NCBI RefSeq assembly: GCF_003334815.1
Contig: NZ_QOWO01000037.1
Strand: one strand, 5' to 3'
Source of the DNA: Escherichia coli
GTDB lineage: Bacteria > Pseudomonadota > Gammaproteobacteria > Enterobacterales > Enterobacteriaceae
Length of the DNA stretch: 37,002 nt
Position numbers and translations under genes: made by a program. Below are positions 36,301 to 36,926 of this stretch, in pieces; the first letter of the stretch is position 1; each line of letters opens with the position of its first letter. The notes below the pieces were generated by a model, which did no database searches, had not been told where the DNA came from, and saw nothing but the letters and a program-made list of their open reading frames with translations.

Positions 36301-36752
36301 AGGTTTCTCTTATGTTGGCGTTTTCTATTCAGTATAGAAGTCGGAGCGGCTGGGCGAGATGCGGAAGTTCTGGAATGTTTCTTTTTTTTGGTGATGGTGA
36401 ACTGATGGTGCCTGAAGCAATTTGGCTACTTTTGCAATGTGACAAGTTATGGCAGTGCTGACTGGTGGCGAAGAATTTTGACGATTGAGTCATGCAGAAA
36501 AAAACGGGTTCAGCTTCAGTTGATTAAATGAGGAGTGAGAAGTCCGAAACAGGACTCACTGTATAAATAAACAGCTATTTTGTTGAGGAAGGGTAAGATA
36601 ACGGCGGGTGCCTGAAGCTTTCCGGTTTCAGGTTTACTCTGAGGTCTGGAAAGATGAAGCCCCAGGAGATATTTCTATCAACCCTGGGGCTGCCACTCCA
36701 AACCCGAACAATTTGGATGGTAGTCCCTTCTTCGCATGGAGGCAATATAAAC

Positions 36753-36905
36753 ATGCTGACGAAATATGCCCTTGCGGCAGTCATAGTGCTGTGTTTAACG
36801 GTGCTGGGATTTACGCTTCTGGTCGGAGACTCGCTGTGTGAGTTTACGGTGAAGGAACGTAATATTGAGTTTAAGGCTGTTCTCGCTTACGAACCGAAGA
36901 AGTAG
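36753..36905 (+). CDS. hokE: Hok/Gef-family small membrane toxin (type I toxin-antitoxin)
   Basis: 50-aa [53 protein letters not shown] with single TM helix and conserved Hok C-terminal motif (SLCE...A...YE); RBS GGAGG 7 nt upstream; overlapped by an upstream out-of-frame ORF as in mok/hok loci. Confidence 0.85.
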
Positions 36906-36926
36906 CCGTTGTGCGGGGAGTAATCC

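Follow-up and report, generated by a model that had tools for sequence, protein, structure and literature searches.

The spacer to the right of ybdK in this stretch of Escherichia coli DNA (the window, 37,002 nucleotides in all) raises the question of whether it holds an intact hok/sok-type module, with a toxin gene, an antisense RNA, a mok-like coupling frame and a regulatory mRNA leader, as the earlier note had proposed. We read it, with a probability of about 0.9, as the chromosomal E. coli hokE/sokE type I toxin–antitoxin locus, here as an allele with an IS186 insertion 21 nt beyond the hokE stop codon. Both genes, hokE and sokE, have already been described in the literature or in RefSeq, as have the LexA box, the IS186 downstream and the editing site at Tyr46; the locus has little discovery value, and the gain lies in corrections to its reading. 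The features of the locus are as follows:

35182-36300, minus strand: ybdK, from the NC_000913.3 annotation mapped onto the window.
36557-36576, unstranded: LexA (SOS) box CACTGTATAAATAAACAGCT, a match to the core CTGT-N8-ACAG.
36594-36599, plus strand: -10-like hexamer TAAGAT, read in the sequence, of a putative hokE promoter.
36606-36752, plus strand: hokE mRNA 5' leader, with a tac-like 5' end GGGUGCCU, the Sok target region and the hok SD, from the RF01794 match.
36650-36709, minus strand: sokE antisense RNA gene, 60 nt (RefSeq ncRNA sokE, b4835).
36745→36717, minus strand: candidate sokE promoter TTGCCT-17-TACCAT, from a motif match, a SELEX listing and a sokB-like layout.
36753-36905, plus strand: hokE coding sequence, a small membrane toxin of 50 aa (RefSeq hokE b4415, ORF call, Pfam and alignment).
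36888-36890, plus strand: codon 46 TAC (Tyr) in a TACG context, a published TadA A-to-I editing site.
36914-36926, plus strand: left half of the conserved post-stop hairpin GCGGGG-AGTAAT-CCCCGC, from junctions compared with empty sites.
36927-37002, plus strand: left end of IS186, with the terminal repeat CATAAGCGCTAACTTAAGGG... and the beginning of the insL transposase gene, from the K-12 junctions.

From 36301 to 37002 the window is 100% identical to E. coli K-12 MG1655 and to many other complete E. coli genomes, and the gene order ybdK–sokE–hokE–IS186 is the one annotated in K-12 (NC_000913.3). K-12 hokE/sokE (b4415/b4835) with IS186B is therefore alike in sequence over this interval, in gene order and in the IS186 junction, whereas the two genomes differ in the flanking 22 kb, which are 99.2-99.4% identical, and in the DLP12 prophage, which K-12 carries at argU and the window lacks. 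A tRNA-Arg gene (anticodon TCT, argU-like) was called by both Rfam and ARAGORN at 15067-15143 on the plus strand. Colinearity with K-12 begins at 15096, with none before that position, and the window thus comes from a strain without the DLP12 prophage found at argU in K-12. A short break in colinearity was also seen between cusC and cusF, where window positions 26019-26025 correspond to 25894-26025 of the K-12 extract; K-12 is longer there by about 125 nt.

The assignment of a Hok-family type I toxin with a minus-strand antisense Sok gene overlapping its leader proved right. At 36753-36905, where a 50-aa toxin had been claimed, the reading frame is present and its product matches Pfam HOK_GEF (PF01848; E 9.2e-8, model 1-42/42). 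HokE aligns with HokA, HokB, HokC and R1-type Hok with C14, T16, L28, E30, E39 and A45 invariant, and it conforms to the Hok/Gef domain, that of toxins of about 50 aa with an N-terminal transmembrane helix and conserved Cys, Thr and Glu. BLASTP against HokC gave E 3e-7 with an identity of only about 30%, and the NCBIfam Hok models match HokE with scores of 47.7 and 38.9, below the respective curated thresholds of 89 and 73. The hok SD, GGAGG, lies at 36738-36742, 10 nt before the hokE AUG. Overexpression of the HokE coding sequence is reported to be toxic (bioRxiv 10.1101/2025.08.07.668861). According to Pedersen & Gerdes 1999, cited in PMC5630033, hokE is inactive in K-12, and no effect on persistence was seen when hokE and five further SOS toxin genes were deleted together (PMC8406316).

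Within this gene, TadA A-to-I editing of codon 46 recodes Tyr to Cys (PMC5630033), a site that had been missed in the earlier note. In the Pseudocitrobacter orthologue, codon 46 is hard-coded as TGC (Cys). A local hairpin around the TACG editing site was not supported by folding (z +0.5).

The start of the leader was located with the covariance model RF01794 ('sok antitoxin'), which matches 36606-36761 on the plus strand over its full length (model positions 1-157) with 84.4 bits against a gathering score of 59; at gathering threshold, a scan of the whole window with Rfam returned this match and one tRNA and no other. Taken by its name and its strand, the match would place a 'sok antitoxin' RNA on the plus strand at 36606-36761, a reading that has next to no probability. 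In an orientation test on K-12 hokC, hokB and hokA, an R1-type plasmid hok and the hokE alleles of other strains, RF01794 matched the hok strand at every locus, hokC, hokB and R1-type hok among them, and ended at the hok AUG, while sokC and sokB are annotated within its span but on the other strand; the model is also 157 nt long, against about 60 nt for Sok RNAs. The test rules out a plus-strand antitoxin: what RF01794 describes is the leader of hok mRNA, between +1 and the start codon, and not the antitoxin strand, so that a plus-strand match to it must not be taken for an antitoxin gene.

The model gives a leader of 147 nt (36606-36752) in place of the 452 nt that had been claimed. The left edge of the tandemly duplicated hok unit, in strains in which the locus is uninterrupted, corresponds to about 36538 in the window, and 36301-36537 therefore falls outside the hok unit, as ybdK-proximal spacer. 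The leader folds with an MFE of -58.7 kcal/mol (z -3.5). In an alignment of 18 sequences, namely 15 hokE-type loci together with hokC, hokB and R1-type hok, 11 of the 32 consensus pairs are maintained through changes on both sides, as in the replacement of CCAAA/UUUGG by CCGAG/CUCGG between E. coli alleles. The 15 hokE-type loci comprise 12 Escherichia copies and 3 non-Escherichia loci, drawn from E. coli (K-12-type, EC958, O157:H7, 55989 and SCPM-O-B-8794), E. albertii, E. whittamii, Citrobacter, Pseudocitrobacter and Phytobacter. The folding and covariance-model searches that had been suggested for the region thus both point to a structured hok mRNA 5' leader containing the Sok target.

Two further elements were noted near the left boundary of this leader. 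A direct repeat, 36400-36418 / 36600-36618, was considered as a relic of another hok 5' end and treated as chance (12-nt exact match; local alignment score 24, against a shuffle mean of 17.1 and maximum of 28). A rightward promoter-like sequence, ATGGCA-16-AAGAAT, is listed for the ybdK/sokE spacer in RNA polymerase SELEX (PMC3946193); it lies at about 36449-36476 on the plus strand, some 130 nt upstream of the predicted hokE start and outside the duplicated hok unit.

For the antisense RNA, the minus strand within the leader had been correctly predicted; the position had been given as roughly 36580-36700, which overlaps only partially with sokE at 36650-36709. SokE, read from 36709 to 36650, has an 11-nt unpaired 5' tail, a long hairpin and the U-rich tail UUCAUCUUU (-24.6 kcal/mol, z -2.8), an architecture common to 18 homologous loci, the annotated sokC and sokB included. 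Upstream of it lies TTGCCT-17-TACCAT, followed by 7 nt and then by the annotated 5' G of SokE; this motif occurs once in the window and in none of 100 shuffles, the sokB promoter has the same layout (TTGCCG-17-TAAGAT, 7 nt, G), and the TAnnAT and TTGCCT positions are conserved in orthologues. A genomic SELEX of the RNA polymerase sigma-70 holoenzyme (PMC3946193) also lists this motif in the ybdK/sokE spacer, filed there under ybdK because it points leftward. Its -35 overlaps the hok SD and its -10 overlaps an in-frame ATG at 36717. Annotation, motif and fold together argue for a cis-encoded antisense Sok gene with its own promoter and terminator. A generic scan for sigma-70 promoters and terminators over 36250-37002 on both strands called none; this is not evidence of absence, because the scan used a threshold of 9/12, the sokE promoter scores 8/12 against the consensus and the Sok hairpin contains a bulge. 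With an antisense promoter, a terminator-like hairpin, a covariance-model match and an alignment to Hok all present, none of the findings that the earlier note had named as refuting its proposal was obtained.

Matches of miRNA families to the Sok hairpin (E 0.3-0.6, far below gathering) were dismissed as chance. The minus strand also contains a 69-aa ORF at 36575-36784, which corresponds to 89 aa in other strains; the 89-aa form is annotated as 'hypothetical protein' by PGAP, and the ORF is called frameshifted in the window's allele. It is probably spurious, because it matches no family and lies across sokE and the leader.

Upstream of the leader, we found a LexA box that was missing from the earlier note. 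Its core, CTGTATAAATAAACAG at 36559-36574, would span -47 to -32 relative to the predicted hokE transcription start; it is the sole CTGT-N8-ACAG match in the 37-kb window, and 15 of 20 positions agree with the 20-mer consensus. LexA boxes also lie upstream of hokE-type loci in E. albertii, E. whittamii, Citrobacter, Pseudocitrobacter and Phytobacter, although these non-E. coli loci were retrieved with a pattern that requires a LexA box, so that any estimate of its conservation is biased. The putative hokE promoter has a -10-like hexamer for which the form TAnGAT is found 6-7 nt before GGGTGCC in 15/15 hokE-type loci; no good -35 was found for it, and the generic scan did not call it.

SOS control of hokE is contested. 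The gene is listed among SOS/LexA-box toxin genes (PMC2826370, PMC1891008), the heterology index of its LexA box is given as 4.9 (PMC11228462), and an SOS-induced hokE transcript is credited to Fernandez De Henestrosa 2000, as cited in PMC1891008. In RNA-seq of 2024 after AZT, hokE was not induced (0.47-fold) and showed no lexA dependence (PMC11228462). Other LexA-box toxin loci have, as at hokE, a constitutive antisense or adjacent antitoxin RNA (PMC2826370, PMC8406316), but their toxins and RNAs are unrelated to hokE/sokE.

At the other end of the module, the right-hand limit of the locus as first described, 36926, is the IS186 junction, which had passed without remark. Comparison of both K-12 IS186B junctions with empty sites in other strains identifies a 10-bp target-site duplication, GGAGTAATCC at 36917-36926, in a GGGG-N6-CCCC site next to the terminal inverted repeat; IS186B thus starts at 36927 by junction reading, against 36924 in RefSeq. 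The insertion lies in the loop of the post-stop hairpin, which is kept in 15/15 hokE-type loci. When IS186 was removed in silico, the predicted mRNA was 405 nt long; its MFE structure pairs GGGUGCCU at the 5' end with AGGCACCU, the equivalent of fbi, towards the 3' end, and a terminal hairpin follows. With IS186 in place, folding pairs the mRNA 5' end only locally, with +51-57. The fbi element is conserved in hokE orthologues, and none complementary to the mRNA 5' end was found in the window, because IS186 begins so close to the stop codon.

This arrangement recurs elsewhere. A query spanning the hok–IS186 junction was covered by at least 80% in 1873 of 5426 complete E. coli genomes, a count in which some matches may be to the hokC junction. 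IS186A occupies the homologous hairpin at hokC (GCGGGGAGTGATCC|IS186|GGAGTGATCCCCGC), in the same orientation and about 20 nt after the stop codon, and the IS186 sites at hokC and hokE have the post-stop hairpin GCGGGG-AGTRAT-CCCCGC in common. The conserved post-stop hairpin of hok loci therefore looks like a preferred IS186 target.

In strains free of IS186, EC958, O157:H7 and 55989 among them, two tandem hokE units, about 95% identical and repeating every 503 nt or so, lie between ybdK and entD, and each includes a LexA box, a leader, a Sok region and fbi. Two matches to the hokE locus are the median for E. coli genomes, most of which have it as a tandem pair. Only one unit, with a 3' end resembling copy 2, is present in the K-12-type allele and in E. 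albertii. Matches to the Rfam sRNA ES036 (CssrF), just above gathering, were also seen near entD and fepA at other Escherichia loci, all outside the window; in the locus extracts they lie at 2067-2108 (-) in L004 (55989), 3102-3143 (-) in L012 and 1955-1996 (+) in L114.

There remains the coupling frame. The earlier note described, in effect, an intact R1-style hok/mok/sok module in which the ORF at 36608-36841 is mok and a 452-nt leader carries the regulatory folding. The ORF exists (GTG start, 77 aa, in a frame different from that of hok), it stands to hok as R1 mok and mokB do, the start of hok lying one frame ahead, and 9 of the 15 loci keep the frame open as far as +3 or beyond. A mok-like role for it nevertheless fails on several grounds. 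Comparison with the hokC and hokB loci, which the note had itself suggested, showed that RF01794 matches both and that the AUGs of mokC, mokB and R1 mok all fall at model positions of about 96-99; at this position, ATG, GTG or TTG is found in 0/15 hokE-type loci, which read CCAAAC or CCGAGC. The GTG of the ORF lies at +3 of the predicted mRNA and its other start, TTG 36713, at +108, both without an SD, and the TTG is lost in 3 of 12 Escherichia copies (TCG in O157 copy 2, 55989 copy 2 and E. albertii) and absent from the three non-Escherichia loci. Single-nucleotide insertions shift the frame in EC958 copy 1, 55989 copy 1 and E. whittamii copy 1, and single-nucleotide deletions in EC958 copy 2, O157 copy 1, SCPM-O-B-8794 copy 2 and E. 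whittamii copy 1. In the Pseudocitrobacter, Phytobacter and Citrobacter orthologues the frame is closed; the first two have no start in it before hok, and Citrobacter has only an ATG 13 nt upstream, without an SD. The ORF has no NCBIfam match, and the only uses of 'mokE' found in the literature are unrelated ones. Since, in addition, the duplicated hok unit starts only at about 36538 and IS186 has removed fbi, so that the module is not intact, we consider an R1-style module very improbable here.

Coupling might instead be non-canonical, with ATG 36717 initiating an N-terminally extended Hok of 62 aa that takes the role of the 69-codon mokC under the control of SokE. K-12 mokC is indeed annotated in frame with hokC and with the same stop codon, and ATG 36717 is in frame with hok, 36 nt upstream of its start, and present in all Escherichia copies and in Phytobacter. 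However, this ATG has no SD upstream and lies outside the annotated SokE RNA, the 5' end of which is at 36709; it also falls within the sokE -10 hexamer (ATGGTA = TACCAT), which by itself explains its conservation. Pseudocitrobacter has ATA in its place, and in Citrobacter it is not in frame; we regard this alternative as unlikely. Across the 15 hokE-type loci, none of the alternative frames has a conserved start or an SD, and a mok-like coupling frame at hokE is not supported by the sequences compared.

Our preferred reading, a hokE/sokE locus interrupted by IS186, would work as follows, with its transcript ends, Sok–mRNA pairing and cleavage, and any SOS control in vivo, assigned by homology. 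An mRNA would start on the plus strand at about 36606, from a promoter with the conserved -10-like TAAGAT and with the LexA box over its -35 region, and in it the structured leader of 147 nt would precede the coding sequence for HokE, a membrane toxin of 50 aa, with its own SD. On the minus strand, TTGCCT-17-TACCAT would act as a constitutive sigma-70 promoter for the 60-nt SokE (36709→36650). If SokE works as Sok does in R1, its free 5' tail may pair with the leader, and the duplex would block expression and be cleaved, keeping the toxin off. As there is no conserved mok frame, the coupling step would be either absent or non-canonical. IS186 has shifted the 3' fbi (AGGCACC) and the terminal hairpin to a distance of 1.3 kb; with fbi displaced, the mRNA would be unable to adopt the 5'–3' locked, stable and inert form that gives delayed activation, and its 5' end would instead fold locally onto +51-57. 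The hokE locus is thus probably crippled as a hok/sok-type module, though its toxin ORF is intact.

With hok/sok (parB) of R1, the paradigm type I system, the locus shares a Hok-family toxin, a leader matching RF01794 and an antisense Sok built of an unpaired 5' tail, a hairpin and a U tail. In both, the Sok promoter and the hok SD region overlap, and the mRNA 5' end is complementary to a 3' fbi, at hokE in the uninterrupted allele. In that paradigm, RNase III cleaves the Sok–mRNA duplex and 3' processing activates the mRNA. Unlike R1, hokE lacks both a start codon where mok would begin and a mok frame that is conserved; it is chromosomal, has a LexA box at its promoter and, in the window's allele, is separated by IS186 from its fbi and terminator. 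Post-segregational killing is reportedly not mediated by chromosomal hok loci (bioRxiv 10.1101/2025.08.07.668861). The paralogue hokC (gef)/mokC/sokC of K-12 likewise has an IS186 (IS186A) after the stop codon, but it differs in its annotated in-frame mokC, with an AUG in the Sok target, which hokE lacks. Having lost the 3' regulatory half, the window's allele should not serve as an example of an intact hok/sok module.

The distribution of such loci was explored by scanning 298 Gb of contigs for a LexA box together with GGGTGCYTGA. The scan gave at least 120 matches, most of them chance matches in unrelated phyla; among the matches listed, 7 were enterobacterial loci, 6 of which have a real hok leader. 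The pattern was too permissive for so large a collection, and the taxonomic spread obtained is a lower bound. We tentatively suggest, as a possibility that falls short of an even chance, that the hokE-type loci of Escherichia, Citrobacter, Pseudocitrobacter and Phytobacter form a Hok subfamily that lost the mok frame and gained a LexA box. If this is true, Sok in the mok-less subfamily would act without mok, directly affecting either the stability of hok mRNA or the hok SD, and hokE-type loci would offer a natural test case for hok/sok regulation without translational coupling.
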